The notes under the pieces are model-generated. The model had not been told where the DNA came from. It ran no database searches and was given only the letters and a program-made list of their open reading frames with translations. This document shows, piece by piece, positions 13,471-39,461 of a DNA stretch of 39,461 bases. The DNA is taken from the sequence record MT542512; one strand, written 5' to 3'. Position numbers and translations under genes: made by a program. Position 1 is the first letter of the stretch. Each line of letters starts with the position of its first letter. The DNA comes from Escherichia phage PhiV-1.

Positions 13471-13472
13471 GA

Positions 13473-18345: not shown

Positions 18346-18360
18346 TCGTATGGAGGTCTT

Positions 18361-18633: not shown

Positions 18634-18647
18634 TTAGGAGGTCTATC

Positions 18648-18962: not shown

Positions 18963-18975
18963 TTAAGGAGGCACT

Positions 18976-20583: not shown

Positions 20584-20603
20584 TACGACTCACTAATGGG
20601 AGA
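20581..20603 (+). promoter_or_regulatory. Phage RNAP promoter (phi9), perfect local consensus
   Basis: TAATACGACTCACTAATGGGAGA; overlaps gene 8 stop; transcript 5' end can fold gggagagacactacgtcctccc. Confidence 0.75.
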
Positions 20604-20659
20604 GACACTACGTCCTCCCTTTGAGTTCAACTTTATGAAATCTAAAGGAGATAACAATT

Positions 20660-21571: not shown

Positions 21572-21574
21572 AAT

Positions 21575-21597
21575 TAATACGACTCACTATTGGGAGA
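21575..21597 (+). promoter_or_regulatory. Phage RNAP promoter (phi10)
   Basis: TAATACGACTCACTATTGGGAGA; 5' hairpin gggagagacattacgttctccc. Confidence 0.75.
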
Positions 21598-21703
21598 GAC
21601 ATTACGTTCTCCCACTTTGAGTGATACACAATGAGAACCAACTCGTTTCAAGTAGTACCTCACATTTAAACTTTTCATATAAATCAACAGAAGGAGATTC
21701 AAC

Positions 21704-22747
21704 ATGGCTAACATGAATGGTGGACAGCAGATGGGTAAAGACCAAGGTAAAGGCATGAGCGCTGGTGACAAACTGGCTCTGTTCCTGAAGGTCTTCGGTG
21801 GTGAAGTTCTGACTGCATTTACCCGTACCTCCGTAACTATGAACAAACACCTTGTGCGTTCTATTCAGTCCGGTAAGTCCGCGCAGTTCCCTGTGCTGGG
21901 TCGTACCAAAGCTGCTTACCTGCAACCGGGTGAGAACCTCGATGACAAACGTAAAGACATGAAGCACACTGAGAAGGTCATCAACATTGATGGTCTGCTG
22001 ACTGCTGACGTTCTGATTTACGACATCGAAGACGCAATGAACCACTATGACGTGCGCTCCGAGTATACCGCACAGTTGGGTGAATCTCTCGCGATGGCTG
22101 CTGATGGCGCGGTTCTGGCTGAAATGGCTAAACTGTGTAACCTGCCGTCTGCGTCTGATGAGAACATCGCTGGTCTCGGTAAGGCTCATGTACTGGAAGT
22201 TGGCAAGCAGTCTGATCTTCAGGGAGACCAAGTTAAGCTGGGTCAGGCTATTATCGCACAGTTAACTCTGGCTCGTGCCAAGCTGACTAGCAACTATGTT
22301 CCGTCTGCTGACCGTGTGTTCTACACCACTCCAGACAACTACTCTGCTATTCTGGCTGCTCTGATGCCTAACGCTGCAAACTATCAGGCTCTGATTGACC
22401 CGTCTACTGGCTCTATCCGCAACGTTATGGGCTTCGAAGTTATTGAGGTTCCGCATCTGACTGCTGGTGGTGCTGGCGAAGACCGTCCAGAAGAGGGTGT
22501 AAATCCGACTGGTCAGAAACATGCGTTCCCTGAGACTTCCTCTGGTGACACCCGTGTTGCTCTGGACAACGTTGTCGGTCTGTTCAATCACCGCTCTGCC
22601 GTTGGTACTGTTAAGCTGAAAGATATGGCACTGGAACGTGCTCGTCGAGCTAACTTCCAAGCAGACCAGATTATCGCTAAGTACGCTATGGGTCACGGTG
22701 GTCTGCGCCCTGAAGCATGTGGCGCGCTGGTTTTCAACAAGGCTTAA
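21704..22747 (+). CDS. 10A: Major capsid protein 10A
   Basis: 347 aa; MA.M.GGQQMG N-terminus and RANFQADQIIAKYAMGHGGLRPEA as in T7 gp10A. Confidence 0.98.
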   Translation: MANMNGGQQMGKDQGKGMSAGDKLALFLKVFGGEVLTAFTRTSVTMNKHLVRSIQSGKSAQFPVLGRTKAAYLQPGENLDDKRKDMKHTEKVINIDGLLTADVLIYDIEDAMNHYDVRSEYTAQLGESLAMAADGAVLAEMAKLCNLPSASDENIAGLGKAHVLEVGKQSDLQGDQVKLGQAIIAQLTLARAKLTSNYVPSADRVFYTTPDNYSAILAALMPNAANYQALIDPSTGSIRNVMGFEVIEVPHLTAGGAGEDRPEEGVNPTGQKHAFPETSSGDTRVALDNVVGLFNHRSAVGTVKLKDMALERARRANFQADQIIAKYAMGHGGLRPEACGALVFNKA

Positions 22748-22881
22748 CTTCTCGCAAACTCGTGGGGGACATTGAGTCCCTTACTGAAGTTGAGCAAGAG
22801 CTAACGCCACAACAGAAAGCTGCCCGTACCCGTGCGGCAAACAAGGCTCGAAAGGAAGCTGAGTTAGCTGCTACTGAATGA
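21704..22881 (+). CDS. 10B: Minor capsid protein 10B (10A extended by -1 frameshift at 22729-22735)
   Basis: -1 frame after slippery site encodes ..QQGLTSRKLVGDIESLTEVEQELTPQQKAARTRAANKARKEAELAATE, ending just before the terminator hairpin. Confidence 0.5.
22729..22735 (+). other. Putative -1 programmed ribosomal frameshift heptamer G_GUU_UUC
   Basis: Heptamer 15 nt before the 10A stop; the -1 frame stays open for 50 codons to TGA at 22879. Confidence 0.55.
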
Positions 22882-22891
22882 TAACTATATG

Positions 22892-22933
22892 AAACCCCTT
22901 GGGTGCCTTCGCGGGTGCTTGAGGGGTTTTTTT
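22892..22933 (+). terminator. Tphi-like late terminator
   Basis: aaccccttgggtgccttcgcgggtgcttgaggggttttttt; G-U containing hairpin plus U-tract, resembles T7 Tphi. Confidence 0.7.
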
Positions 22934-22940
22934 CGTACCA

Positions 22941-22963
22941 CTAATAGACTCACTAATGGGAGG
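22941..22963 (+). promoter_or_regulatory. Phage RNAP promoter, variant (phi11 position)
   Basis: CTAATAGACTCACTAATGGGAGG. Confidence 0.5.
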
Positions 22964-22971
22964 AAATCACT

Positions 22972-23562
22972 ATGCGTTCCTATGAGACTACCCTAGAGAC
23001 TGGCGAAGAGTTGGCTGCGGTAAATGACATCTTGGCCTCTATCGGTGAACCACCTGTGTCCACTTTGGAAGGTGATGCTAACGCCGATGTTGCCAATGCT
23101 CGTCGAGTTCTCAATAAGATTAACCGACAGATTCAGTCCAAGGGTTGGACGTTCAACATTGAGGAAGACCAACAGTTGCTACCTGATGTGTTCAACGGAT
23201 TGATTCCTTATATGTCCGACTACCTGTCTGTGATGACACCGGGAGGCGCTACTGCCTATGTCAACCGGGGTGGTTACGTGTTTGACCGGACTACTGGAAC
23301 TGACGTGTTTAAAGAACCAATCACTGTGACCATTATCAAGCTGAGAGAGTTCTACGAGATGCCTGAATGTTTCCGCTTCTGGATTGTCACCAAAGCTGCC
23401 CGTCAGTTTAACAACAGGTTCTTTGGTGCTCCCGAGATTGACGCAGTGTTAGCTGAAGAAGAACAAGAAGCAAAGATGCAGTGTCACGAGTATGAACTGG
23501 ACTTTGGTAACTTCAACATGCTTGATGGTGATGCCTTCACTGGCGGTCTGCTATCTCGCTAA
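22972..23562 (+). CDS. 11: Tail tubular protein A
   Basis: 196 aa; [47 protein letters not shown] as in T7 gp11. Confidence 0.95.
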
Positions 23563-23587
23563 TGATAACAACTTAAGGAGGTCTCTA

Positions 23588-25966
23588 ATGGCTCTTATTT
23601 CACAATCCGTCAAGAACCTGAAGGGCGGTATCAGTCAACAGCCGGACATCTTAAGGTTCCCCGAACAGGGTTCCGAACAGATTAACGGCTGGTCTTCGGA
23701 GACTGAGGGTCTTCAGAAGCGTCCACCTTTTGTCTTCACTAAGACCATTGGAGACCAGAATGCCCTTGGTGCAAAACCGCTCATCCATTTAATCAACCGT
23801 GATAGCGTAGAACAGTATTACGTTGTGTTCACAGGACAGTCAGTCCGAGTGTTCGACCTCAATGGCAAAGAGTACACAGTGAAAGGTGACTTGAGCTACG
23901 TGAAGGTAGGGAACCCGCGTGATGACCTGCGAATGGTAACGGTTGCTGACTATACGTTTATCGTCAACCGCAACATGGTGGTTCGTGCCGATAAGACACC
24001 ACTCTATACTCTGAAAGAGAACGGAGACTGTTTGATTAACGTTCGTGGTGGACAGTATGGGAGAACGCTTGCATTTACAATAAACAACGTTCGAATTGAG
24101 TACAAGATTGCACAAGGAGATAAGCCTGAACATGTACAAGAGACCGATGCACAGTGGCTCGTTAAGAAACTGGCAGGTCTTGCTCGTGCTCACGGTTCCT
24201 TCAAGGACTGGAGGTTCGACGAAGGGTCTGGCTTCATCCACGTAATCGCTCCGGGTAACAGTCAGATTAACCAGCTGTCCACTGAGGATGGCTATGCTAA
24301 CCAGTTGATGAACGCGGTAATGCACACAAGCCAGTCATTCAGTAAGTTGCCAATCGAGGCTCCTAATGGGTACACTGTGAAGATTGTTGGTGACACCTCT
24401 AAGACTTCCGACATGTTCTATGTCCAGTATGACAACGTGAAGAAAGTCTGGAAGGAAGTCGCCGGATGGGGAGTTGAGAAGGGTCTCAATGGAGGCACTA
24501 TGCCACACGCATTGGTTCGTCAGTCTGATGGTTCCTTCCAGATGCAGGTGCTACCGTGGGCGCAACGAACTTGTGGTGACATGGATACTAACCCGACTCC
24601 ATCCATCGTGGACCAGAAGATTAACGATGTGTTCTTCTTCCGTAACCGCTTAGGGTTCCTCGCTGGTGAGAACATTGTGATGTCTCGTACCTCTAAGTAT
24701 TTCTCACTGTTCCCTGCGTCAGTAGCTAACCTGTCCGACGATGACCCGATTGATGTGGCTGTATCTCACAACCGTATCTCAATCCTGAAGTATGCCGTAC
24801 CGTTCTCTGAAGAGTTGCTGCTATGGTCTGACCAAGCACAGTTCGTCCTGAGCGCTTCCGGTATCCTATCACCGAAGACAGTTGAGTTGAACCTTACGAC
24901 CGAGTTCGATGTGTCCGACCGAGCGAGACCTTTTGGCGTTGGGCGTGGTGTGTACTTTGCGTCACCTCGTGCTTCCTACACGTCACTGAACCGTTACTAT
25001 GCGGTACAGGATGTTAGCTCCGTGAAGTCTGCTGAGGATATGAGTGCTCACGTTCCAAGTTACATTCCGAACGGTGTGTTCTCCATTCGCGGCTCCGGTA
25101 CTGAGAACTTTATCTCCGTGCTCTCTGCGAACGCCCCAAGTAAAATCTTCCTATATAAGTTCCTCTACTTGAATGAAGAGATTGCCCAACAGTCGTGGTC
25201 TCATTGGGAACTTGGTAGTAACGTAACGGTTCTGGCTTGTGACTCTATCGGCTCAACGATGTACCTTGTGTTGCGCAATCAGTCACACACTTGGATGTGC
25301 CGAGCACACTTTACGAAGAACTCCATTGACTTCAACGATGAACCATATCGGCTGTACATCGACAACAAGGTCAAGCATGTGATTCCTAAAGGTGCGTACA
25401 ACGATGACACCTACACGACCACTATCAAGCCTGTGGACATCTACGGTATGAAATATTGGACTGGTAGGTTCTACATCGTGGCCTCTGATGGTATGGTCTC
25501 GTGGTTCGACCCTCCGCGTGGTGGTTGGCCTAATGGTGTCCCTGTGTTGTCAATGAGTGGGAACCGTGAGGATGAGACAATCTACGTCGGCTTGGCTATC
25601 AACTTCCGTTATGTGTTCTCTAAGTTCCTCATCAAGAAGACTGCTGATGATGGCTCGACAGCTACCGAGGACATTGGGCGCTTGCAATTACGCCGAGCGT
25701 GGGTGAACTATGAGGACTCTGGTGCATTCACTGTAGAAGTGGAGAACACCTCTCGACTGTTCAGCTATGACATGGCGGGTGCTCGCTTGGGTTCCAATGC
25801 GTTACGCACTGGTGGACTTAACGTTGGTACTGGTCAGTTCCGATTCCCGGTTGCTGGCAACGCACAGTTGAACGAAGTAAGGATTATCTCTGACCACACT
25901 ACACCACTTAACGTGATTGGCTGTGGATGGGAAGGTAACTACCTACGACGCTCTTCTAGTATCTAA
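23588..25966 (+). CDS. 12: Tail tubular protein B
   Basis: 792 aa from ATG 23588 (RBS aaggagg); MALISQS.KNLKGGISQQPDILR...CGWEGNYLRRSS.I as in T7 gp12; the track ORF start at 23492 is upstream of the RBS. Confidence 0.95.
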   Translation: MALISQSVKNLKGGISQQPDILRFPEQGSEQINGWSSETEGLQKRPPFVFTKTIGDQNALGAKPLIHLINRDSVEQYYVVFTGQSVRVFDLNGKEYTVKGDLSYVKVGNPRDDLRMVTVADYTFIVNRNMVVRADKTPLYTLKENGDCLINVRGGQYGRTLAFTINNVRIEYKIAQGDKPEHVQETDAQWLVKKLAGLARAHGSFKDWRFDEGSGFIHVIAPGNSQINQLSTEDGYANQLMNAVMHTSQSFSKLPIEAPNGYTVKIVGDTSKTSDMFYVQYDNVKKVWKEVAGWGVEKGLNGGTMPHALVRQSDGSFQMQVLPWAQRTCGDMDTNPTPSIVDQKINDVFFFRNRLGFLAGENIVMSRTSKYFSLFPASVANLSDDDPIDVAVSHNRISILKYAVPFSEELLLWSDQAQFVLSASGILSPKTVELNLTTEFDVSDRARPFGVGRGVYFASPRASYTSLNRYYAVQDVSSVKSAEDMSAHVPSYIPNGVFSIRGSGTENFISVLSANAPSKIFLYKFLYLNEEIAQQSWSHWELGSNVTVLACDSIGSTMYLVLRNQSHTWMCRAHFTKNSIDFNDEPYRLYIDNKVKHVIPKGAYNDDTYTTTIKPVDIYGMKYWTGRFYIVASDGMVSWFDPPRGGWPNGVPVLSMSGNREDETIYVGLAINFRYVFSKFLIKKTADDGSTATEDIGRLQLRRAWVNYEDSGAFTVEVENTSRLFSYDMAGARLGSNALRTGGLNVGTGQFRFPVAGNAQLNEVRIISDHTTPLNVIGCGWEGNYLRRSSSI

Positions 25967-25993
25967 ATGAAACACCCCGACTCAATAAGTGAA

Positions 25994-26016
25994 CAATACG
26001 ACTCACTATTGGGAAG
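25994..26016 (+). promoter_or_regulatory. Phage RNAP promoter (phi13)
   Basis: CAATACGACTCACTATTGGGAAG. Confidence 0.7.
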
Positions 26017-26042
26017 GGGTTTATACTTAAAGGAGAAACTCT

Positions 26043-26456
26043 ATGCTAATAATCAGACCTACTAAAGAATCAGACTTTGCTAGGTTCACTCCGTCACCTG
26101 AAGACATCGCTGAGGCAAAAGCCTATGGCATTGAACCTTCATTTCCACCAGCTAACGAGTGCGTCACTATGTCACTTCATGGTATGCCCGTGGCTATCGG
26201 TGGTAATTGTGGCGACCAAGTGTGGTTCGTAACGTCCGCTCGTGTTTGGAAACTAAGTATGAAGACCCGAAGAGAGTTCCGAAAGCTCATTCTGGAGTAT
26301 CGTGATACCATGCTCAAACAGTATCCGATTATCTGGAACTACGTTTGGGTCGGCAACAAGTCCCACATTAGGTTCTTGAAGTCTATTGGTGCGGTGTTCC
26401 ATAATGAGTTTACTGGTGACAGTAATCAATTCCAACTATTCACTATAGGAGGTTAA
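26043..26456 (+). CDS. 13: Internal virion protein A
   Basis: 137 aa at gene 13 position. Confidence 0.75.
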   Translation: MLIIRPTKESDFARFTPSPEDIAEAKAYGIEPSFPPANECVTMSLHGMPVAIGGNCGDQVWFVTSARVWKLSMKTRREFRKLILEYRDTMLKQYPIIWNYVWVGNKSHIRFLKSIGAVFHNEFTGDSNQFQLFTIGG

Positions 26457-26458
26457 CT

Positions 26459-27064
26459 ATGTGCTGGATGGCTGCAATCCCAATCGCCATGCAAGGTGCG
26501 TCTATGGTAATGGGCGGTATGCAGGGTGAACAGGCAAAGGCCGCACAGATTGACCAAGGTCGTCGACAAAGCTGGCAGATGATTAAGGAGATGAACTACA
26601 ACGATGCTAACCTTAAGTTAGAATCTCGTGACCTCATCGACTCAACTGTCCAAGAGATGACCCAAGCGAATATGAACCGTGTGCGAAACATGGGGACTAT
26701 CCGTGCGGCAATTGGTGAAGGGATGCTTGAAGGTAACTCAATGGAACGTGTAGCTCGCGTTACTGAGGGTGACTTCCTTCGAGAGTCTCAAGGTCTCACC
26801 GAGAACTACCAACGTGACTACAGTGTCATCTTAGGTAAGCGTTTAGCTAACCGTGAGAATACCGTAAGTCAAATCAATGAAATCAACAAGTCCGAACCAC
26901 GTCTGAAAGGCAAGCTGGAACAAATCATTGACCCATTAGGCTTAGGCTTAACGAAGCTGGTCGATGTGGCAACTGCTGGTAGCCCTCTGACTAACAAGCT
27001 GGGTAAGAAGGCAGCTGCTAAAGTTAAGGCTTCGGATGCTAAGTCTACCGGACAAGGCAAGTAA
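26459..27064 (+). CDS. 14: Internal virion protein B
   Basis: 201 aa at gene 14 position; RBS aggagg. Confidence 0.85.
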   Translation: MCWMAAIPIAMQGASMVMGGMQGEQAKAAQIDQGRRQSWQMIKEMNYNDANLKLESRDLIDSTVQEMTQANMNRVRNMGTIRAAIGEGMLEGNSMERVARVTEGDFLRESQGLTENYQRDYSVILGKRLANRENTVSQINEINKSEPRLKGKLEQIIDPLGLGLTKLVDVATAGSPLTNKLGKKAAAKVKASDAKSTGQGK

Positions 27065-27081
27065 ACACAGGAGGTAACTGT

Positions 27082-29361
27082 ATGAGTAAGTTAGCACAAG
27101 CATTGGGTAACATGGGTGCTCCTGCTGCAAGCCGACTCCGTGGTACTGGTCGTATGGACGTTAAGGCTGCGACTGTCTATGAAGACCCTAGCTATGCCAA
27201 TAAGTCCGCACTGATTGGGACTGTAGGTAAACTTGCTGAGATGGGTGCTGATGCGTACATGAAGTATGACCAGAAGCAGAAGGACAAGGCAGATGAGCGC
27301 TCCAACGAGATTATCCGCAAGTTGACTCCTGAGCAACGACGTGAGGCCATTAAGAATGGAACACTTCTGTATCAGGACGACCCTTACGCGATGGAAGCAT
27401 TGAAGATTAAGACTGGTCGCAACGCGGCCTACTTGGTTGACGATGAGGTTGCACAGAAGGTTAAGAACGGTGAGTTCCGTACTCGTCAAGAGTTGGAAGA
27501 GTTCCGTCACAGCCGACTGCAAGAAGCCGCTAAGAACTATGCGGAACAGTTCGGTATCAATGAGTCAGATGAGTTTTATCAGAAGGGTTTCAACTCCGAC
27601 ATCACTGAACGTAACATCGCCATCTATGGTGCTCATGATAACTTCCTGAGTGACCAAGCTAAGAAGGGTGCCGTTATCAACAGCCGTGTCGAACTGAACT
27701 CTGTACTCAACGACCCTGAGACCCTTCGTTCCCCATATGCTGGTGAGTTCTTTGAGAACTACTTCAGTGCTGGATTGACGACTGGTAGTATCCCTAGTGA
27801 TGACCAAGCGTTCACAATGATTAGCCAAGGTCTGTCTGACGTGGTTAACCGTGAAGGTGGCGGTCAGTTCCTACAACAGATTGAGAACCGTAAGGTGAAA
27901 CTCCACGGAAAAGAGACAACCTTCAAGGAACTGATGGGTGCCGAACAGTGGAACAATCTGATGGTTAAGGCTCAACATAATGAGTTCCAGTTGAATGCTA
28001 AGAAGACCGAGGCGTTCCAACTTAATGTGAACTCTGCGTTGAACCAAGAGAACGTGAACACTGGCTGGGAACAGTTGCAATCCATCAAGGCTGAACTGGA
28101 CACACTGCAACCGGGCGAAGAGATGACACCTGAACGTCAGGCGTTAATCAATGCACAGACGCAGATGCAGGACAGGATGAAGCGGGAGACTGCTGAGTTA
28201 GCAAAGCAGATGGACAAGCAACAGAAGTCGATGAACAAGATGAACGTCATTGACGCACAGTTCCAGAAGCGACTCAATGGTCAGTATGTGTCTACTGCGT
28301 ATGGCGATATGCCTACCAACGAGAACACTGGTGAGTTCACCCATAGTGACATGGTTAACTATGCGAACAAGAAGTTAGCCGACATTGACGCTATGGACAT
28401 CCCTGCTGAACAGAAGGACCGAATGAAGCTGGACTACCTCAAGGCTGACTCCGAGAAGGGTGCTTTCCGTACTGCGGTGGGTGAACTGATTGGTGACGCT
28501 GAGAAGGAATGGACGTCCGCTGTGATTAATGGGAAGATGCCTGAAGATGGCGGTGTTGCCCTTAACGCTCTTCGTCGTGTCCGTAATGCTGACCCTGAGT
28601 TATTTGCTGCGCTGTATCCTGATAAAGCCGAGATGTTCCTCACTATGGACATGATGGACAACCAAGGGATTGACCCGCAGATTCTCTTAGATGCAGACAA
28701 GGCTCGACAATCTCTGACCAAGGATATGCAGTATGAGGACGACAAGGCATGGGCTGCTCTCAAGAACAACTCACAGTCTCCTGAACTGTCCCGTATGCCA
28801 GCCACCTTGGATGCTGGTGCTCGTAAGATTTATGACTCTGTGAAGTACCGTACTGGTAACGCTGACATGGCAATGCAACAGGTCGATAAGTATCTCAAAG
28901 AGAACACAACGACTCTCACTGGTGATGATGTTGATGGCGATACCATTGGTGTCTTGACGAGAAACTCTCTGCGTGTGACCGATGACCCGGACTCTTGGAA
29001 ACAAGGTAAGGACATCATCGACCAAGCCGCTAAGAAACTCGCTGAGACGAACCCTTGGGTGACTAATAAGCAACTCACTGTGTTCGAGCGTGGTGACTCT
29101 ATCTACCTGATGGACACTACCGGACAGGTTAACGTAAGGTATGACAAGCAGTTGCTCTCGAAGATGTACCAAGAGAATCAGGCCAAGTTGGATGCGGAAG
29201 CACGCGACAAGGCACTCAAAGATGCCAACAAGCGAACCCTGCATACACGAGCTATGAACCGTAAGCGTGAACGTGAAGCCAAGAAACCTAAGCGTTCTGG
29301 TAGCATGTATGATTCGGTGAGTGGTAAAGGTATTCTGGACACGCTGACTGGTAAAGACTAA
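27082..29361 (+). CDS. 15: Internal virion protein C
   Basis: 759 aa at gene 15 position; RBS aggagg. Confidence 0.9.
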   Translation: MSKLAQALGNMGAPAASRLRGTGRMDVKAATVYEDPSYANKSALIGTVGKLAEMGADAYMKYDQKQKDKADERSNEIIRKLTPEQRREAIKNGTLLYQDDPYAMEALKIKTGRNAAYLVDDEVAQKVKNGEFRTRQELEEFRHSRLQEAAKNYAEQFGINESDEFYQKGFNSDITERNIAIYGAHDNFLSDQAKKGAVINSRVELNSVLNDPETLRSPYAGEFFENYFSAGLTTGSIPSDDQAFTMISQGLSDVVNREGGGQFLQQIENRKVKLHGKETTFKELMGAEQWNNLMVKAQHNEFQLNAKKTEAFQLNVNSALNQENVNTGWEQLQSIKAELDTLQPGEEMTPERQALINAQTQMQDRMKRETAELAKQMDKQQKSMNKMNVIDAQFQKRLNGQYVSTAYGDMPTNENTGEFTHSDMVNYANKKLADIDAMDIPAEQKDRMKLDYLKADSEKGAFRTAVGELIGDAEKEWTSAVINGKMPEDGGVALNALRRVRNADPELFAALYPDKAEMFLTMDMMDNQGIDPQILLDADKARQSLTKDMQYEDDKAWAALKNNSQSPELSRMPATLDAGARKIYDSVKYRTGNADMAMQQVDKYLKENTTTLTGDDVDGDTIGVLTRNSLRVTDDPDSWKQGKDIIDQAAKKLAETNPWVTNKQLTVFERGDSIYLMDTTGQVNVRYDKQLLSKMYQENQAKLDAEARDKALKDANKRTLHTRAMNRKREREAKKPKRSGSMYDSVSGKGILDTLTGKD

Positions 29362-29384
29362 CAGACCACGATAGGAGGTTCCAA

Positions 29385-32300
29385 GTGGATAAGTATAACC
29401 AGAACGAACCGCATGAATATGATGCGTTATTTCAACAAGCTGCTGACACACATGGAGTCTCCTATGGCCTTCTTCGGAAGGTCGGTTGGGTAGAGTCCCG
29501 CTTTAAGCCTACGGCTCAATCACCAACAGGGCCGAGAGGTGTCATGCAGTTCACTAAGGCAACTGGTCAGGCTTATGGTCTCCAGAACGATGAGGACTTC
29601 GCTGACCCGGCTAAGTCCATTGATGCAGGTGCTCGTTACCTTGCAGACCTCGTTAAGAAATACAATGGGGATGAACTTAAAGCTGCCCTAGCGTACAACC
29701 AAGGTGAGGGACGTAATGGTAAACCCCAATTGGAAGCCTACGACTCTGGTAACTTTGCTGGCATCGGTGATGAGGGGCGCAACTATCTCCGCTCACTTCT
29801 GGATGTCGCTAAGTCTCCTAAGAGTGGTGACATTGAGTCATTCGGGGGTATCACCCCAAAGGGTAAAGGGATTCCGTTCGATACTGCTATGAGTGGTATC
29901 GGGAAGAAAGGAAAGGTAACTACAGAACTCCCTGAGTCTCACTCAATGTCCTTTCAAGGTAAAGAACAGTCCGCTCCCAATCAGCCGTTCGGAAAAGACT
30001 ATTGGGAAGCAAAAGGAACTACACTCGACGAAGCTAATGAGCGTTCAACCTTCTTCGGATTCGGTAATGCTACTGAAGCAGAACTCTCCAACTCAACCTT
30101 GGGTGTGGCCTTCCGTGCTGGTAAGCGTGATAATGGTTTCGATGTTGTTACTGATGTACTTCAACCGACACGGTTTAACAGCCACATTTGGTCGCCTGAA
30201 GAACTCGAAAGGATTCGCAACGAAGTGAAGAACCCTGCGTACATGAACGTAGTGCTTGGAGGTTCCTCTGAGAATCTGGATGAACTCATCAAGTTAGCCA
30301 ATGAGAACTTCGAGTTGGACTCTAAGGCCGCTGATGCTGGTATTGGTGCCAAACTGTCTGCTGGCCTTATTGGTGCTGGTGTTGACCCATTGACCTACGT
30401 TCCTATCGCTGGGACTGCGGCTAAAGGGTTCAAGCTGGTTAACAAGGCATTGATTGTAGGTGCTCAAGCTGGCGCTCTTAACGTGGCCTCTGAAGGACTC
30501 CGCACATCGGTTGCTGGCGGTGATGCTCACTATGCTGAAGCTGCCCTTGCTGGTATGCTGTTCGCTGGTGGCCTTACTGCTATCGCTGATGGTGTGGCTG
30601 CTGGTCTCCGTAAGTCCGGTGCTGAACAGATTGAGAACCCATTCGCTGCTGCACAGATGCGCTTTGAGGCTCGTGAGACTGCACGTAACACTGGTGGTTA
30701 TGACGCAAGCCGTATGCCTCCTAGTGAAGACCGAGTGTTCTCGAATCACAATGGCGTTGAGTATTCACCTCTTGAAACTGAACCGGGTGCCGTAGTGTTG
30801 CGTGATGGTTCCATTATCAGTGATACAAACTTGGCTAACCCGATGACAGCCAAAGAGTTCGCAGAAGTAGACCCTGAACGTGCTGCGTGGGGCTTGCCTA
30901 TGCGTGGACTGAGTGAAATCGGCTTGAGGACTTTGCGTTCTGAACACGCTGAAATCCGTGGTCTCGCTAAGGACTTAGTGCGTTCACCTACAGGGATGGA
31001 GTCTGGCTCACATGGTAAGTTCGGTGCTACGGCCTCTGACATCAAAGAGCGTCTGCACAGTACCAACCAGCGAACCTACAATGACCTCTATGATGCAATG
31101 AAGGAAGCAATGGCTGACCCTGAGTGGTCAGTGGGTATGTTCAAGCGTGGTGCTCAAGGTGCCCGTCAGGAAATCTATCGTCGTGCTGCTATCGCTATTG
31201 AGCGTCCAGAACTTCAAGCCAACTTAACGAAGGCTGAACGTAAGGTAATGGACATCATGAAGGAACATTTCGACCTCAAGCGTGAGATGATGGAGAACCC
31301 GGCTATGTTCGGTAACAAGGCAACTTCCATCTTCCCTAACAGTCGTCACAAAGGGACTTACGTTCCTCATGTGTACTCACGGGAAGCCAAGCAGTTGTAC
31401 GCACAGGCTCTTGGTGGCTCTGACGGTTTACAGGAAGCTATCGCTGCAAGCTGGATGACCTCTTACCGTTCACGCCCTGAAGTTAAGGCTCGTGTGGATG
31501 AGCATTTAGCGGAGACATTGGGTATCGACCCGAAGGCTGTAACCGAAGAGATGGTGATGAAACATGCCAGCGACAAGGCTTATGGTATTGCGAAGACTGA
31601 TGAGTTCAACTCTTCGAGTGTCATCGACGATAACATTGAGGGTCTCGTTGGGATTGAGAACAACTCGTTCCTTGAAGCCCGTAACCTGTTTGACTCTGAC
31701 ATGCCAGTCACTCTACCTAATGGACAGCAATTCTCTGTGAATGACCTCCGTGACTTCGATATGAAGCATGTGATGCCAGCCTATGACCGCCGTGTTGATG
31801 GTGACATTGCTATCATGGGTGGTACAGGAAAGACTACTGCTGAACTCAAGGATTCCATTATGGCTCTCGATAAGAAGTCAGAAGGGAAGGGTACGATGAA
31901 AGGTGAAGTTGAAGCACTCAAGGATACCGTTAAGATTCTCACAGGTCGCGCTCGACGCAATCAGGATACTATGGGTGACACTATGGTTCGCGCTCTGTCC
32001 GATATGTCCTTCTTTACGAAGAACGCATACATGGGCTTGCAGAACCTAACTGAAATCTCTGGTCTCTTGGCGAAGGGTAACACCCGTGCGATGCTGCATG
32101 GCATTCCTGCTCTGCGTGACCTAGCATTCCGTAACAAGCCAGTGTCAGGTAAGGAACTTAAGGAACTACACTCTATGGTGTTCGGTAAAGAGTTCGATGA
32201 CTTAATCAGACCGACACGTCAGGACATCATTCAGCGACTCCGTGAATCTACGGATACACCTGATGTTGCCGCTAAGGTTGTTGGTACGGTTAAGCACACC

Positions 32301-33332
32301 ACTCAAGAGTTTGCTGCTCGCTCTCCGTTCACTAAGTTCCTGAATGGTACATCAAACTACATTCTCGACATGGCTCGACAGGGTGTGATGGGTGATGTGG
32401 TCACTCATGCTATCACTGGCAAGGGTGCCAACAAGTGGATTAAAGGCGACATGCTGAAGTCTGCGAGTATCTCAAAGGAACAGTGGGAAGGCATTCAGAA
32501 CCTCATCCGTGAGAACGTCACTCAAGGTGCTGACGGTAAGTACACCTTCAAGGACAAACGCAAGCTGGCTAATGACCCTCGTGCTATGGACTTGTGGCGC
32601 TTAGCTGATAAGGTTGCCGATGAGACAATGCTGAGACCTCACAAGGTTTCACTTCAGGATTCCCATGCGTTTGGTGCTGCCGCTAAGTTGGTCCTTCAGT
32701 TCAAGTCTTTCGTAATCAAGTCGATGAACTCTAAGTTTATCCGCTCTGGTCACGAGGCTATGAAGAATCACCGAGCTATGGACATGGCATTAACCTATGC
32801 AATCTCTGGAGGCATCGCTGGTGCTTACTATGTTGCACAGGCACACATGAAGGCTGCTGGTCTACCTAAAGAGCAACAGAAGGATTACTTGAAGAAAGCT
32901 CTGGACCCTAAGATGATTGCGTATGCTGCTGCATCCCGTAGTTCACATTTAGGTTCCCCGTTGAGTATCGCCAACTTCGCTATGGGTGCTGCTGGTTACG
33001 ACCAAGGTCTCATGGTGCGCTCCACGATTCTACCGAAAGGAGAAGACAAGCGTGACCGGAATAAAGCAGTGACCTCTCGTGATATGGGAGAATCCATCAT
33101 GGGCGCTATTGGTGAACAGATTCCTGCTCTTGGTTTCGCTGGGGCAACTCTTGCTGCTGGTCGAAATGCTTATGGTGTCCTAACGGCTCCTAACAAAGTG
33201 ACCGAGCGTGAGATGATGACTGGCTTGATGAATGCTCATCGTGAGATGGTTCCTAACGACCCTATCACTCAACAGATGCTCATTAAGTTCTATGAGGCTA
33301 ACGGTGTTCACCTTAAGTCTGACAAGAAGTAA
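29385..33332 (+). CDS. 16: Internal virion protein D with N-terminal lytic transglycosylase domain
   Basis: 1315 aa; GTG start 7 nt after aggagg; N-terminus MDKY..N.P..YD.LFQ.AAD..GVSY.LLRKV.W.ESRF.PTA.S.TGP.G.MQFTKAT as in T7 gp16. Confidence 0.95.
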   Translation: MDKYNQNEPHEYDALFQQAADTHGVSYGLLRKVGWVESRFKPTAQSPTGPRGVMQFTKATGQAYGLQNDEDFADPAKSIDAGARYLADLVKKYNGDELKAALAYNQGEGRNGKPQLEAYDSGNFAGIGDEGRNYLRSLLDVAKSPKSGDIESFGGITPKGKGIPFDTAMSGIGKKGKVTTELPESHSMSFQGKEQSAPNQPFGKDYWEAKGTTLDEANERSTFFGFGNATEAELSNSTLGVAFRAGKRDNGFDVVTDVLQPTRFNSHIWSPEELERIRNEVKNPAYMNVVLGGSSENLDELIKLANENFELDSKAADAGIGAKLSAGLIGAGVDPLTYVPIAGTAAKGFKLVNKALIVGAQAGALNVASEGLRTSVAGGDAHYAEAALAGMLFAGGLTAIADGVAAGLRKSGAEQIENPFAAAQMRFEARETARNTGGYDASRMPPSEDRVFSNHNGVEYSPLETEPGAVVLRDGSIISDTNLANPMTAKEFAEVDPERAAWGLPMRGLSEIGLRTLRSEHAEIRGLAKDLVRSPTGMESGSHGKFGATASDIKERLHSTNQRTYNDLYDAMKEAMADPEWSVGMFKRGAQGARQEIYRRAAIAIERPELQANLTKAERKVMDIMKEHFDLKREMMENPAMFGNKATSIFPNSRHKGTYVPHVYSREAKQLYAQALGGSDGLQEAIAASWMTSYRSRPEVKARVDEHLAETLGIDPKAVTEEMVMKHASDKAYGIAKTDEFNSSSVIDDNIEGLVGIENNSFLEARNLFDSDMPVTLPNGQQFSVNDLRDFDMKHVMPAYDRRVDGDIAIMGGTGKTTAELKDSIMALDKKSEGKGTMKGEVEALKDTVKILTGRARRNQDTMGDTMVRALSDMSFFTKNAYMGLQNLTEISGLLAKGNTRAMLHGIPALRDLAFRNKPVSGKELKELHSMVFGKEFDDLIRPTRQDIIQRLRESTDTPDVAAKVVGTVKHTTQEFAARSPFTKFLNGTSNYILDMARQGVMGDVVTHAITGKGANKWIKGDMLKSASISKEQWEGIQNLIRENVTQGADGKYTFKDKRKLANDPRAMDLWRLADKVADETMLRPHKVSLQDSHAFGAAAKLVLQFKSFVIKSMNSKFIRSGHEAMKNHRAMDMALTYAISGGIAGAYYVAQAHMKAAGLPKEQQKDYLKKALDPKMIAYAAASRSSHLGSPLSIANFAMGAAGYDQGLMVRSTILPKGEDKRDRNKAVTSRDMGESIMGAIGEQIPALGFAGATLAAGRNAYGVLTAPNKVTEREMMTGLMNAHREMVPNDPITQQMLIKFYEANGVHLKSDKK

Positions 33333-33333
33333 T

Positions 33334-33356
33334 CAATACGACTCACTAATGGGAAG
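33334..33356 (+). promoter_or_regulatory. Phage RNAP promoter (phi17)
   Basis: CAATACGACTCACTAATGGGAAG; 5' hairpin gggaaggctcacacagcttccc. Confidence 0.7.
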
Positions 33357-33403
33357 GCTCACACAGCTTCCCTCTATCCAACACATTCGAAAGGAGGCTA
33401 CTG

Positions 33404-35371
33404 ATGGCTAACAAGATTCGTACTGTGATGACTTACCCACTTAATGGTGCCGTGAACTTCACGATTACCTTTGAGTATCTGGCACGTAAGTTCATCCAAG
33501 TGACACTCATTGGTAAAGACCGTAAAGAACTGGTTCTCAATCAGGACTACCGTTTTACCAGTAAGACTCAAATTACTACTACCCGTGCGTGGACTGCTGC
33601 TGATGGCTACCAGATGATTGAGATTCGTCGATTCACTTCGGCTACTGACCGTCTGGTTGACTTTGCCGATGGCTCAATCCTCCGTGCGTATGACCTGAAC
33701 ATCTCGCAGATTCAAACACTGCATGTTGCCGAAGAAGCACGAGACCTCACTGCGGATACCATTGGTGTCAACAATGATGGTCACTTAGATGCTCGTGGTC
33801 GTAAGATTGTTAACTTGGCGTATGCCACAAGTGACTATGATGCCGTTCCTTTAAAGCAGGTTAAAGAGCGTGAATCCTCTGCATGGAATGCTGTGACAAA
33901 AGCTAACGAACACGCTGACAGGGCCAATAAGGAAGCAAACCGTTCTCGTGATGAGGCCAACCGTGCCCAACGTGAAGCTGACCGCTCAACGCAACAGGCA
34001 GGTGTCTCTACACAACAAGCAGTTGAGGCCAAGAAGCAAGCTGACCGTTCTAACTCTGAGGCTAACCGAGCTAAAGGTTATGCTGATAGTATGACCGCAA
34101 GTGTCGCTGAGGCCAAGAAGCAAGCTGACCGTTCCACCTCTGAGGCCAATCGTGCCCGTGATGAGGCCAATCGTGCTGCCGGAGAAGTGACTAAAGCTGC
34201 TGCTGAGGTTGCCAAGGCTGCTGCACACGTTGAGACCGCTAAGAGTCACGCCAATCGTGCTAACACTGAGGCAGAACGCTCTAAGAGTGAAGCCGACCGT
34301 GCTAAAACCGAGGCTGACAAGCTGGGTAATATGAATGAATTAGCTGAGGCCATCGACAGGGTTGATGCTCCTGATGTTTACTTCAAGAGGAATGTTATAG
34401 CCGGACACAAATTGGAGACTTCTGGAGGCTCGCATCTTCACCCTAATGAGATTAAATTGGTTAACAATAAATCTCCAGACCAGCACTTCATTGTACAAGC
34501 GTGGGGAACTGGAGACCCTAATAATAGGTCGCAGGTGTTTGAGTTAAAGGATAACTTGGGTCCGTACGCATTCTATATCCAGCGCCAGAAGAAGACAGAC
34601 CAAACTTGGCAAATGAGTGTGAACGGTACTGTTAGCTGCGTATCCATCGAGGCTGGCAAGGGTTTCATCTCTAAGGACAGTACAGGCTCCATTCAGATGA
34701 AGACTTGGGGGGGTGGTTGGAACCAATGGACTTCTAATGCTGTTCCAGACATTCAGCACGATATTGAGGCCCAACATGATGCTGCTTATCTTCTGGAGAG
34801 GGCTACCATTTGGGGTAAGGAGCATTTATACGCAAAACAACTGTACAATAATGGCACTGGCGCAAACTTCTTTATTCGCCACTACCTACGAGGCTCTTAC
34901 TTCGACTTCCGCTCTGATGGTACTCTTATCAGTTCCACCGGATGGAATATCCCGGCAGATGGAAACCTGTACATCAAGAAATATGGACTATATATTGATG
35001 CGTGGGTTAACAAGCGCTTGGGCGAACACGCCTACAACAAGAGCGAGACAAACAACCTAGTGAATGGTCGATTGACACAAGCGCAAGCTGATGGTCGCTA
35101 CATTCGCAAGAACGCTGGTTGGGCTGAGGTCTGGAGCGGCTCTGCTGGTGGTGGTGTTTCCGTAGGTCTCTCACAGGATGTTCGTTGGAGAACCATCTGG
35201 ATTCAAACTCAAGGCAGATGGAACCCTGTTCAGATTGGTGATAATGGTGCTTACTACATCTCGTCTAATGGTGGGTGGTTGAAGTTCACCATCTCTAATA
35301 ACGGTAGGACGTTCCGTAACGATGAGGACAGGACTTCTGTTCCTACGAGAATCTTGATTCAAAACCAATAA
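33404..35371 (+). CDS. 17: Tail fibre protein
   Basis: 655 aa; N-terminal about 150 aa and C-terminal tip (AWTQVWSGSAGGGVSV..SQD.R.R.IWI...SNG..F.N..D.RSVP) match T7 gp17; central coiled-coil longer than in T7 (553 aa). Confidence 0.95.
   Translation: MANKIRTVMTYPLNGAVNFTITFEYLARKFIQVTLIGKDRKELVLNQDYRFTSKTQITTTRAWTAADGYQMIEIRRFTSATDRLVDFADGSILRAYDLNISQIQTLHVAEEARDLTADTIGVNNDGHLDARGRKIVNLAYATSDYDAVPLKQVKERESSAWNAVTKANEHADRANKEANRSRDEANRAQREADRSTQQAGVSTQQAVEAKKQADRSNSEANRAKGYADSMTASVAEAKKQADRSTSEANRARDEANRAAGEVTKAAAEVAKAAAHVETAKSHANRANTEAERSKSEADRAKTEADKLGNMNELAEAIDRVDAPDVYFKRNVIAGHKLETSGGSHLHPNEIKLVNNKSPDQHFIVQAWGTGDPNNRSQVFELKDNLGPYAFYIQRQKKTDQTWQMSVNGTVSCVSIEAGKGFISKDSTGSIQMKTWGGGWNQWTSNAVPDIQHDIEAQHDAAYLLERATIWGKEHLYAKQLYNNGTGANFFIRHYLRGSYFDFRSDGTLISSTGWNIPADGNLYIKKYGLYIDAWVNKRLGEHAYNKSETNNLVNGRLTQAQADGRYIRKNAGWAEVWSGSAGGGVSVGLSQDVRWRTIWIQTQGRWNPVQIGDNGAYYISSNGGWLKFTISNNGRTFRNDEDRTSVPTRILIQNQ
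33948..34175 (+). repeat. Internal direct repeats within tail-fibre shaft coding region
   Basis: 26-bp exact repeat gaggccaagaagcaagctgaccgttc at 34025-34050 and 34109-34134; cgtgatgaggccaa(c/t)cgtgc at 33948 and 34157. Confidence 0.65.
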
Positions 35372-35415
35372 TGGAATACAACGAGGCCACGGATGGCTGA
35401 CACTAGGAGGACATA

Positions 35416-35625
35416 ATGTTGTCATTGGATTTTAACAACGAGGTAGTGAAGGCTGCTCCGATTGTAGGGACAGGGGTTGCCGATGGTGCTTCCAGACTGT
35501 TCTTCGGCCTATCACTTAACGAGTGGTTTTATGTAGCCGCAATTGCCTACACAGTGGCTCAAATTGGTGCCAAGGTAGTCGACGTGGTTATCAAATGGAA
35601 GAAGGAGGGTAGAGATGTCGGATAA
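35416..35625 (+). CDS. 17.5: Holin (class II)
   Basis: 69 aa; MLSLDFNNE..KAAPIVGTGVAD...RLFFGLSLNEWFYVAAIAYTV.QIGAKVVD near-identical to recalled T7 gp17.5. Confidence 0.9.
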   Translation: MLSLDFNNEVVKAAPIVGTGVADGASRLFFGLSLNEWFYVAAIAYTVAQIGAKVVDVVIKWKKEGRDVG

Positions 35626-35881
35626 ATCTTTGATTCAATTCCTTGAGATGCTGGACACTGAGATGGCTCAACGTATGCTTGCTGACTTGCAGAACGATGA
35701 ACGCCGTACACCTCAACTGTACAACGCAATCGGGAAACTGTTAGAACGCCACAAGTTCCAAGTCTCCAAGTTACAGCCAGACCGTAACATCCTTGGTGGA
35801 CTGGCAGATGGACTTCAGGAGTATCAGAACCTAGTAGGTGACGATGGTCTCACTGAAGATGAGAAGTACACGCTGAACTGA
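35615..35881 (+). CDS. 18: Terminase small subunit
   Basis: 88 aa; DKSLI.FLEMLDT.MAQRMLADL...ERR.PQLYNAI.KLL.RHKFQ..KLQPD..ILGGLA as in T7 gp18. Confidence 0.9.
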   Translation: MSDKSLIQFLEMLDTEMAQRMLADLQNDERRTPQLYNAIGKLLERHKFQVSKLQPDRNILGGLADGLQEYQNLVGDDGLTEDEKYTLN

Positions 35882-35885
35882 TGGA

Positions 35886-35925
35886 ATAACTCAAGGCCAC
35901 TACATCTAGTGGTCTTTATGATATT
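35886..35925 (+). promoter_or_regulatory. RNase III-type processing hairpin (R18.5 position)
   Basis: aaggccacta-catc-tagtggtctt 10-bp stem then tatgatattt. Confidence 0.5.
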
Positions 35926-35979
35926 TCAACACAACTCACGGTGACGCTACGTGAAATCTGAAAATACGGGAGGGTAGTT

Positions 35980-36423
35980 ATGCTCAAGAATTTAAAGAGC
36001 TACGTCATAATCGCTGCGTTTGCCTTGGGGATGACCCTTGCGTACAACCACGGCTATGACAAGGCTAACACTAAATGGGAACAGGAGGTGCACAATGAGT
36101 ACGTTAAGAAAGTTAAGGCGACTGAGGATAAACAGGCTGCTATCAACGAAGTCTCACGACAATACCAAGAAGACCTTGCGGCGCTGGAAGGCAGCACTGA
36201 TAGGGTCATTAATGATTTGCGTAACGATGGTAAGCGGCTGCGTGTCAAACTATCAGCCACCTCACGAGAACTCCAAGCTAACGGTGGATGCCTCGTTGAT
36301 GGTCGAGCCGAACTTGACGAAGAGTTTAGTAAGCGTCTTATCGGAGTAACACAAAGAGGGGATGCGTGGATTAAAGCGCTCCAAAATACAATAACTGAAA
36401 TGCAATCTAAGAAGGAGAAATAA
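35980..36423 (+). CDS. 18.5: i-spanin (Rz-like)
   Basis: 147 aa; N-terminal TM (YVIIAAFALGMTLAY) plus coiled coil; matches T7 gp18.5 position. Confidence 0.9.
   Translation: MLKNLKSYVIIAAFALGMTLAYNHGYDKANTKWEQEVHNEYVKKVKATEDKQAAINEVSRQYQEDLAALEGSTDRVINDLRNDGKRLRVKLSATSRELQANGGCLVDGRAELDEEFSKRLIGVTQRGDAWIKALQNTITEMQSKKEK
36095..36349 (+). CDS. 18.7: o-spanin (Rz1-like lipoprotein) embedded in +1 frame of Rz
   Basis: 84 aa from ATG 36095 (RBS aggaggtg); lipobox-like VSGC; SLMVEPNLT as in T7 gp18.7. Confidence 0.75.
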   Translation: MSTLRKLRRLRINRLLSTKSHDNTKKTLRRWKAALIGSLMICVTMVSGCVSNYQPPHENSKLTVDASLMVEPNLTKSLVSVLSE

Positions 36424-36424
36424 T

Positions 36425-36982
36425 ATGGCTACTACAAACTCAAGAACCCGCACACTCTGGACCATCAATGGTCGCTCACCGGACAGCCGGGATATGTACG
36501 ACCGAAACAATGTTGGCCTTCGTGTTGGGCGCATCGACATCCCAGCGTCAGAAATGGTCAAGGTAGATGGCTACGACAAGGTTGAATACGTGGTGCAACT
36601 GAGTGATGGCACAACCGAGCAACATGCTACGTTTGAGACCTTGATGTCCACTTGGGGTGGCTCCGTAGAGTCTAAACCGGGTAGTGGGTTCATGACGGTA
36701 TTTCTGAATGAGCAAAGCACTGAGCGGCTCGGTATGGTTCGAATCGACGTATACAAAGAGTGGACTGGTGCTGACCCTGAGCCGGAAGGTGGTGTGGCTT
36801 CATTAGTTAGTGCAACGCTTTCTGCGTCTGATAGTGCATTTGGTACACAGTTCGTGGATAGCGAAGGGAAGAGCGCTTCCGTTATGTTCCAACCTAGTAA
36901 CATCGACGGGGCTGTATCTAAGACCGACACTATCAAGGCTCTTGAGAAGCGCATCGCTGCCTTAGAGAAATCTGCCGAGTAA
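36425..36982 (+). CDS. Hypothetical protein, unassigned; no T7/T3 counterpart recalled at this locus
   Basis: 185 aa; strong RBS gaaggagaaataatATG; acidic S/T/G-rich with C-terminal amphipathic tail TIKALEKRIAALEKSAE. Confidence 0.6.
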   Translation: MATTNSRTRTLWTINGRSPDSRDMYDRNNVGLRVGRIDIPASEMVKVDGYDKVEYVVQLSDGTTEQHATFETLMSTWGGSVESKPGSGFMTVFLNEQSTERLGMVRIDVYKEWTGADPEPEGGVASLVSATLSASDSAFGTQFVDSEGKSASVMFQPSNIDGAVSKTDTIKALEKRIAALEKSAE

Positions 36983-36997
36983 CAATAGGAGGCCATA

Positions 36998-38758
36998 ATG
37001 TCACAATCCCAAGAAGCTAAGAATGCGCTCATCATTGCGCAACTCAAGGGTGACTTCGTGGCCTTCCTGTTCGTCTTATGGAAGGCTCTGAACTTACCTA
37101 AACCAACCAAGTGTCAGATTGATATGGCACGAACACTCGCTAATGGAGACCACAAGAAGTTTATCCTTCAGGCGTTCCGTGGTATCGGCAAGTCCTTTAT
37201 CACCTGTGCGTTCGTTGTGTGGGTCTTATGGCGTGACCCTCAACTTAAGGTGCTCATTGTGTCTGCCTCTAAGGAACGTGCGGATGCTAACTCCATCTTC
37301 ATCAAGAACATCATCGACCTCTTACCGTTCCTCTCTGAGTTGAAACCTCGACCGGGACAGCGAGACTCCGTGATTAGCTTTGATGTTGGCTTGGCTAAAC
37401 CCGACCACTCACCTTCTGTGAAGTCTGTGGGTATTACTGGTCAGTTGACTGGTAGCCGTGCTGACATCATTATTGCAGATGACGTTGAGGTTCCCGGTAA
37501 TAGCTCTACGAGTTCTGCCCGTGAGAAGCTCTGGACGTTGGTAACTGAGTTTGCTGCATTGCTTAAGCCGCTGCCTACCTCTCGTGTTATCTACCTTGGC
37601 ACACCTCAAACCGAGATGACGCTCTACAAGGAACTTGAGGATAACAAAGGGTACAGCACAGTAATCTGGCCAGCACAGTATCCTCGTAATGATGCTGAGG
37701 CTCTCTACTATGGGGACCGCTTGGCTCCGATGCTTAAGGCTGAGTACGACGAGGGCTTTGAGTTACTCCGTGGTCAACCTACTGACCCTGTTCGATTCGA
37801 CATGGATGACCTCCGTGAACGTGAACTCGAATATGGCAAAGCTGGCTACACTCTTCAGTTCATGCTTAACCCGAACCTTAGTGATGCCGAGAAGTACCCA
37901 CTACGACTCCGTGACGCTATCGTGTGCGCTGTGGACCCTGAACGTGCCCCATTGTCTTACCAGTGGTTGCCGAACCGTCAGAACCGCAATGAGGAACTCC
38001 CTAACGTTGGTCTGAAGGGTGATGACATCCATGCGTTCCATACGTGCTCTTCTCGTACCGCTGAGTATCAGTCTAAGATTCTGGTCATTGACCCAAGTGG
38101 TCGTGGTAAGGATGAGACCGGGTATGCAGTCCTCTACTCACTGAACGGTTACATCTACCTGATGGAAGTCGGAGGGTTCCGTGGTGGCTACGATGATGCT
38201 ACCCTAGAGAAGCTCGCTAAGAAGGCCAAGCAGTGGAAGGTACAGACAGTCGTCCACGAGTCCAACTTCGGTGATGGTATGTTCGGTAAGATTTTCTCTC
38301 CGATTCTCCTGAAGCACCATAAGTGTGCCTTAGAGGAAATCCGTGCTAAGGGCATGAAGGAGATGCGAATCTGCGATACTATCGAGCCGTTGATGGGTGC
38401 ACACAAGCTGGTCATCCGTGATGAGGTCATCCGTGAGGACTACCAGACTGCCCGTGACCTTGATGGGAAACATGATGTCCGCTACAGTGCGTTCTATCAG
38501 ATGACACGTATGACCCGTGAGCGAGGCGCTGTGGCACACGATGACCGCATTGATGCTATCGCATTGGGTATCGAATATCTCCGCGAGGGGATGCTTGTGG
38601 ACAGCCGTGTAGGTGAAGAAGAGATGACCCTTGAGTTCCTTGAACACCACATGGAGAAACAGACCATTGGTGGCGACCAGATTCATAGCTTTGATGTTGG
38701 GGGTGTGGACATCTACTATGAGGATGAGGACGGAGGTTCTAGCTTCATTGAGTGGTAA
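36998..38758 (+). CDS. 19: Terminase large subunit
   Basis: 586 aa; Walker A-like GIGKSF; strong match to recalled T7 gp19. Confidence 0.98.
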
Positions 38759-38845
38759 TAGATAAGTATGCGGGAAAGGTGCATAGGTAAGCACTTAGTA
38801 CCGCTACGTTACCATCAAGTAACTTACTGATATACATGAAGAAAT

Positions 38846-38868
38846 TAATACGACTCACTATTGGGAAG
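38846..38868 (+). promoter_or_regulatory. Phage RNAP promoter (phiOR position)
   Basis: TAATACGACTCACTATTGGGAAG followed by cttaaag repeats. Confidence 0.7.
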
Positions 38869-39024
38869 GGCACCCTAAGACAACTTAAAGACACTTAAAG
38901 ACTGCATATGCAAAGTGCATACTTAGTGACTACTCTTAGAGACCCTTACAGTGAGGTATGATGGTAATAGTAATTACATCCCTACTATCAGTGTAACCAT
39001 CAAGTATAACAAGGAGGACGCTCT

Positions 39025-39180
39025 ATGCGCTTACTATCCGTGCTCAAGACACTGGCAACGCATCGAGCGACTTACAAATTTCTCGTTGTACTTGCTGCTT
39101 CCATTGGTCTCGCATCTAGTGCTGAACACATCGGTGAACTGGAGACTCTGCTTTGTTCTCTACTCACTTGTGTTCCTTAG
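39025..39180 (+). CDS. 19.5: gp19.5-like small protein
   Basis: 51 aa (below track threshold); aaggagg RBS 5 nt upstream; MRLLSVLKTLATHRATYKFLVVLAASIGLASSAEHIGELETLLCSLLTCVP. Confidence 0.45.
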   Translation: MRLLSVLKTLATHRATYKFLVVLAASIGLASSAEHIGELETLLCSLLTCVP

Positions 39181-39348
39181 ACTACTCATCGGCGCTTAGT
39201 GCGCTCTTAGTGATTATGGTCGATATACATCTTCCCTATAATCACTGTAAGAAGTCAACTCTAAGAGTATCCATTATGTAACCTCTATGGTCTACAGGGT
39301 CTCTTAGGGTCTATCACGTAGTCTCACCGCTATGCTCCCTGCGTAGCA

Positions 39349-39381
39349 CCTTATGATAGCCACTCTGTGGTGAACCTTATG
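39349..39381. repeat. Right-end CCTTATG repeat copies
   Basis: ccttatga at 39349 and 39375, same heptamer as left-end array. Confidence 0.45.
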
Positions 39382-39429
39382 AGACTTGATGTACCCTTTA
39401 AGAATCCTACAGAAAAATCTGAGTGGGTA

Positions 39430-39461
39430 TCTCATAGTTCATACAAAGTGTTTCCCCCCCC
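39430..39461. repeat. Probable physical left genome terminus / start of terminal repeat (TCTCATAGTTCA...)
   Basis: tctcatagttcatacaaagtgtttcccccccc resembles the conserved T7/T3 genome 5' terminus. Confidence 0.45.

Follow-up and report, generated by a model that had tools for sequence, protein, structure and literature searches.

The window analysed here, that is, the whole stretch of 39,461 nt, is the complete genome of a podophage that is T7-like and belongs to Berlinvirus, a genus of the subfamily Studiervirinae. Its large ORFs all lie on the + strand and follow the T7 order, and the Pfam matches to this T7-type, single-orientation gene set comprise the single-subunit RNA polymerase, the family A DNA polymerase, the T7 portal, the Gp10A capsid protein and the T7 tail fibre, together with an S-adenosylmethionine lyase and a T7-type terminase. 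A T7-type promoter (ATACGACTCACTAATGGGA) was recovered by a repeat search at 15 or more places along the window. Nucleotide similarity searches took in the first 25 kb and the ends of the window. Over the first 25 kb, the Berlinvirus CarlSpitteler was 93.4% identical over 97% of the length, and BA14 and Kvp1 showed 92% identity, with coverage ranging from 94 to 97% across the three phages. The ICTV genus threshold is ~70% genome-wide nucleotide similarity, and the values found, 92-93% identity over 94-97% of the first 25 kb, lie above it. No identical record was present in the phage collection (release of August 2025) when the first 25 kb and the ends of the window were searched. Since the best match in that collection, at 93.4%, falls under the usual species line of 95%, the window may represent an undescribed Berlinvirus species. 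The same phage is also present in the sequencing runs SRR36203964 to SRR36203967. Scans of the window for tRNAs and Rfam families gave no matches.

The two ends of the record fall between the last and the first gene of this genome, inside a putative terminal repeat (TR). From gene 19, across the record ends and up to gene 0.3, the features are as follows.

36998-38758, + strand: gene 19, terminase large subunit (Pfam Terminase-T7_RNaseH-like, E=8e-40).
38846-38868, + strand: phage-RNA-polymerase promoter phiOR, TAATACGACTCACTATTGGGAAG, 562 nt upstream of the TR; identical to the annotated phiOR of BA14 and a member of the promoter repeat family.
39025-39180, + strand: gene 19.5, the last gene; maps onto the gene 19.5 CDS of BA14.
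39349-39381, + strand: two CCTTATG heptamers left of the TR.
39395-39429, + strand: conserved box adjoining the left TR boundary, CCCTTTAAGAATCCTACAGAAAAATCTGAGTGGGTA; identical in BA14, close in T3 (CCCTTTAAGAATTTACCACAAAAATCTGAATGGGTA) and T7.
39430-39461, + strand: start of the TR, TCTCATAGTTCATACAAAGTGTTT and then the C-run, with the putative physical left end at 39430; identical to BA14 over TR positions 1-24, BA14 TR position 1 mapping to 39430.
39454-39461, + strand: C8, TR position 25 onward, the homopolymer viewed from its left side.
1-8, + strand: C8, the homopolymer of 39454-39461 written again (C9, C9 and C10 in sibling assemblies, C5-C7 in relatives).
1-173, + strand: rest of the TR (C-run plus 165 nt), ending ...CCTCTCTGTGTCCCT, with the putative physical right end at 173; BA14 TR position 194 maps to 173.
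78-283, + strand: seven CCTTATG heptamers, two in the TR (78 and 137) and five just right of it (200-283).
172-179, + strand: CTATCTGT, annotated in BA14 as 'concatemeric junction' (misc_feature 193-200); holds ATCTGT(A), the counterpart of the ATCTGTT box of T7 and T3.
424-447, + strand: phage promoter phiOL, TAATGCGACTCACTAATGGGATAG, a member of the promoter repeat family; the end of BA14 phiOL maps to 447.
981-1436, + strand: gene 0.3 (S-adenosylmethionine lyase), the first gene (Pfam S-AdoMet_lyase, E=8e-40); the start codon of BA14 0.3 maps to 981.

The 3′ end of the window reads ...gagtgggta tctcatagttcatacaaagtgtttcccccccc (39430-39461) and its 5′ start cccccccctatggcctcc. Written out, the last 32 nt are ...GAGTGGGTA TCTCATAGTTCATACAAAGTGTTTCCCCCCCC, that is, TCTCATAGTTCATACAAAGTGTTT followed by C8, and the record opens with CCCCCCCCTATGGCCTCC, so that the letters quoted for both ends in the initial annotation, with C8 at each, agree exactly with the sequence. 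In all 39,461 bases, the only C runs of six or more on the + strand are these two terminal C8. Homopolymers of seven or more number four in total: besides both C8, these are a single G7 (34707-34713) and a single run of seven T. Because no other homopolymers of this length exist, the placement of two C8 exactly on both record ends cannot be due to chance.

We compared the boundaries of the putative repeat with those of T7, T3 and BA14. The alignment placed the left boundary, in the window and in BA14, at ...AAAAATCTGAGTGGGTA/TCTCATAG (the slash marks the boundary), between window positions 39429 and 39430. Immediately upstream of the right-hand repeat, the unique sequence ends in ...AAAAATCTGAATGGGTA in T3 and in ...AAAAATCTGAGTGACTA in T7, and the first bases of the repeat are TCTCATAG or TCTCACAG in all four phages, T7 starting with TCTCACAG and T3 with TCTCATAG. 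At its left end, T3 starts with exactly the 12 nt that begin at 39430, TCTCATAGTTCA, and it has a C8 of its own at nearly the same offset. The last 32 nt had been proposed to represent a left terminus of the T7/T3 type, and this view is borne out by the stretch ...AAAAATCTGAGTGGGTA/TCTCATAGTTCA, identical in BA14 and conserved in T3 and T7; homology of the boundary to these three phages likewise argues for a true left terminus near 39430, as had been proposed. The right boundary, ...CTCTGTGTCCCT/ATCTGT, is common to T7, T3, BA14 and the window, where it lies between 173 and 174. Extension of the repeat past position 1 had thus been correctly predicted, but not its end point, which had been put at about 180 and lies at 173 when mapped from BA14. 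As judged by homology, the physical ends would be at 39430 and 173 with a precision of 1 nt, since Kvp1 is annotated with repeat boundaries that deviate by one base on each side from those of BA14, T7 and T3. We also observed that the junction box at 174-180 reads ATCTGTA in the window, BA14 and Kvp1 and ATCTGTT in T7 and T3; the former seems to be a variant, at the level of the genus, of this conserved right-boundary box.

The promoters phiOR and phiOL, as well as arrays of short motifs, flank the repeat. For the heptamer CCTTATG, we counted 16 copies in the window where 3.3 would be expected (~5-fold); nine of the 16, each on the + strand, are clustered in a stretch of ~400 nt that surrounds the junction. 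By analogy, this array resembles the CCTAAAG arrays that surround the repeat of T7 and may be their counterpart. Positions 1-1000 contained no intrinsic-terminator-like sites. Inside the TR, at 48-76 on the minus strand, there is a match to a leftward sigma-70-like promoter (TTGACA, a spacing of 17 nt, TACCAT; 10 of 12 positions), which is a consensus match only, reminiscent of A0, the leftward E. coli promoter that is annotated in T7 and, in T3, within the repeat.

Among the closest known systems, BA14 (NC_011040) has a 194-bp TR annotated at both ends of its record, the two copies being identical, while the window has one copy. The BA14 repeat starts with TCTCATAGTTCATACAAAGTGTTTACCCCCTATGGCCTCC; its first 24 nt equal window positions 39430-39453 and, after the C-run, it continues as the window does from position 9 onward. 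The 60 nt that precede the right-hand repeat are all but identical in both phages, the right boundary CCTCTCTGTGTCCCT/ATCTGTAA is identical, as is phiOR, and so is the order gene 19.5, TR, phiOL, host promoters, gene 0.3. BA14 differs from the window in having A plus C5 in place of at least C8, and in that its record begins at the physical left end whereas the window is permuted by 32 nt. Kvp1 shares with the window the genus and the repeat architecture, with a C6 run at the same place; its 194-bp TR is annotated in two identical copies at both record ends and, as CTCATAG...GTCCC, falls short of the BA14/T7/T3 boundaries by one base on either side. The ends of Kvp1 were determined experimentally (PMC2579914). 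Repeat lengths in the phages compared are 160 nt in T7 (measured from the record), 231 in T3 and 194 in both BA14 and Kvp1. T7 and T3 have the C-run ~25 nt from the left end (C5 and C8, respectively) and resemble the window in the box AAAAATCTGA.TG..TA that precedes the repeat, in GTGTCCCT/ATCTGTT at its right edge and in the presence of short flanking motifs; in contrast, the repeat interiors are only ~60% alignable and the flanking motif is CCTAAAG instead of CCTTATG. As far as sequence comparison can tell, all these features match a T7-type short direct terminal repeat together with the concatemer junction of Studiervirinae/Berlinvirus.

To count the copies of the repeat, we rebuilt the TR from both record ends. 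A self-BLAST of the window found it only at 39430-39461 plus 1-173, as a single copy, in agreement with the proposal that the direct repeat had been collapsed to one copy. The possibility that the window holds both copies was rejected, as neither the repeat search nor self-BLAST revealed a second copy, whole or partial. The rebuilt TR is ~90% identical to the TR of BA14 and ~87% to that of Kvp1. The last 32 nt correspond to TR positions 1-32, and the circular permutation by about 32 nt put forward in the initial annotation is therefore upheld. For a C-run of C8 to C10, we computed a TR of 197-199 nt, a non-redundant genome of 39,453-39,455 bp and a virion DNA of 39,650-39,654 bp.

We then examined whether the junction is continuous in other assemblies. 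Siblings were defined as Logan contigs that encode the terminase protein of the window residue for residue, and came from runs SRR36203964, SRR36203965 and SRR36203966. These contigs span gene 18.5/19, gene 19.5, the junction and genes 0.3, 0.7 and 1. When compared with the window joined with C9, the SRR36203964 contig (L038, 9,152 nt) was 100.000% identical and gap-free, and the SRR36203965 contig (L037, 9,671 nt) had one mismatch; in the SRR36203966 contig (L019, 4,425 nt), a C10 was the only difference from the joined window. The C-run was thus C9 in L017/L037, C9 in L018/L038 and C10 in L019, each independent single-run assembly reading through the junction with 0-1 mismatches over 4.4-9.7 kb, as expected if the sequence continues at position 1. 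In relatives, the run is also single: C5-C7 in 11 GenBank relatives and C5 or C6 in 7 metagenomic relatives, T3 having C8. The junction lies inside the record in nine of the related GenBank records inspected. When IMG/VR was scanned for exact matches to the terminus sequence, only three contigs came up, none of them a closer copy.

These results establish that the two C8 are one homopolymer seen from either side and that the junction is continuous; the suspicion that they reflect an overlap or assembly artefact, and not two separate runs, was well founded. The tract is probably ~9-10 long, not 16, and the record probably carries 6-8 surplus C's; the overlap is put at 6-8 nt, and more probably at 6-7 than at exactly 8, given a run that most likely counts 9-10 C's. 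With at least C8 and up to C10, the C tract of this phage is longer than any other seen among Berlinviruses, and this tract, which varies between sibling samples, is the only mildly unusual element of the locus. The variation from sibling to sibling may reflect sequencing or PCR noise, or real slippage. That the tract, 24 nt from the left end, is genuinely hypermutable, its length heterogeneity within and between cultures being biological and due to replication slippage in the TR, seems doubtful to us; were it true, it might have an influence on how the ends are processed or on early events at the genome end as it enters.

Taken together, the evidence makes it very probable that the window is a Berlinvirus genome whose TR of ~198 bp was collapsed to one copy, in a circle opened at the C-run inside the TR. 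T7-type phages package unit genomes from concatemers, the repeat being regenerated at each end. The virion DNA would be linear and, as in relatives, would carry an exact short direct repeat of ~198 bp. Because reads from the left and right copies, or from replicative concatemers, would be indistinguishable, the assembler would merge them and the assembly would close into a circle holding one repeat copy. If this circle were opened within the repeat, at the C homopolymer that lies 24 nt inside the true left terminus, the record would end with TR positions 1-32 and start with TR position 25 onward, leaving the C-run at both ends. The canonical layout would instead run from 39430 through a single C-run of ~9 and positions 9 to 39429 to a second copy of 39430..173. 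It has been described that assemblers cannot separate both repeat copies, so that the first base becomes arbitrary; in the assembly of T7 reported with PhageTerm the termini fall at 7740/7899, and its 'DTR short' class shows read-start peaks at both termini with ~2x coverage between them (PMC5557969). Such collapsed and permuted assemblies share with the window the single repeat copy, but have an arbitrary first base (PMC5557969), whereas the window opens on a homopolymer, part of which is duplicated at both ends.

The break at the homopolymer most likely stems from a graph fork on a variable run length. We infer this because the sibling runs differ only in tract length (C9, C9, C10) and because a 1,425-nt Logan contig of another Berlinvirus relative (L032, SRR14663214) ends inside the homologous C-run (...GTGGTTTCCCCCC). 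Reads with mixed run lengths (C8, C9, C10 and so on) would split the path of a de Bruijn or unitig graph behind the eighth C, the branches meeting again eight C's before TATGG; the resulting unbranched contig would extend from C8+TATGG to TTT+C8, as the window does. Since L032 stops inside the same C-run, the data suggest that the C homopolymer repeatedly breaks short-read graph assemblies. A further Logan contig from a fourth sibling run, L033 (SRR36203967, 1,324 nt), is 100% identical to the window and ends in ...GAGTGGGTATCT, equivalent to window position 39432. This end is only 3 nt into the TR, near the putative left boundary, where a break is not predicted by the simple graph argument; it might stem from a mixed population or from end reads joined through adapters.

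We considered other explanations for the structure of the record. If both C8 were real, they would form a single C16 tract and the circle would have been opened exactly in mid-tract. Literal joining of the window ends does give C16 and tract length does vary between relatives (C5-C10), but the three assemblies that are otherwise 99.99-100% identical show C9, C9 and C10, and the maximum is C7 in relatives and C8 in T3. Moreover, for a 39.4-kb circle to be opened exactly halfway along a 16-nt tract would be a coincidence of ~1 in 39,000, whereas a graph fork yields a symmetrical C8/C8. We regard the C16 tract as extremely improbable and reject it on the basis of the sibling assemblies. Just as little credit can be given to the idea that the virion DNA really ends at window positions 1 and 39461, with a cut in the C-run and a T7-type TR that is absent or reduced to 8 nt. 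It is true that the contig stops at both positions and that assemblies do terminate at physical ends; nevertheless, both canonical TR boundaries are intact and conserved (39430 and 173) and independent assemblies cross the C-run unbroken. We know of no 8-nt redundancy in this subfamily. Its repeats are cited as 148-428 bp, against which a redundancy of 8 nt would have to be set, and the ends of the congeneric Kvp1 were mapped to the canonical positions (PMC2579914). Real ends at 1 and 39461 were consequently rejected on read-through and on boundary conservation, the latter pointing by homology to ends elsewhere.

A collapsed repeat in a circle opened at the C-run might also have come about by a technical cause other than a graph fork, such as faulty overlap trimming, a drop in coverage or quality, or manual re-orientation. 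The record is already in the canonical T7 orientation, 32 nt from the canonical start, which makes human re-orientation conceivable. On the other hand, assembler overlaps are k-mer sized (tens of nt) and not 8 nt, and template relatives start at TCTCATAG and not at the C-run, window position 3 mapping to position 25-26 of their records; in addition, the sibling runs differ at this tract alone and L032 ends in the same tract. We therefore hold such a cause to be possible but rather unlikely. A different technical cause for the break would leave the main conclusion unchanged.

The phenomenon is already known: this is an ordinary artefact of assembly layout and involves no new biology, and the value of recognizing it is practical, limited to correction of the record. 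As it stands, the record gives a wrong genome length and hides the terminal repeat, split across the record ends, and circularising it would create a false C16 tract. The record can be fixed by starting it at 39430, dropping the 6-8 surplus C's and appending a second 39430..173, which gives a virion DNA of ~39,650 bp.

Elsewhere in the genomes compared, some metagenomic relatives (L025, L029 and L030) carry HNH endonuclease ORFs (Pfam HNH_3), inserted in the interval that separates the terminase gene from gene 19.5 or just past the junction, sites at which the window has no HNH ORF. In the window, the tail-fibre gene (33404-35371) contains the G7 run at 34707-34713, in frame in the record, which could be a hot spot for slippage or sequencing errors. 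The repeat search also found, at 33902-34302 of the same gene, five diverged copies of a 65-nt unit whose spacings are multiples of 21 nt, and these units probably correspond to a heptad-like repeated segment of the fibre shaft.
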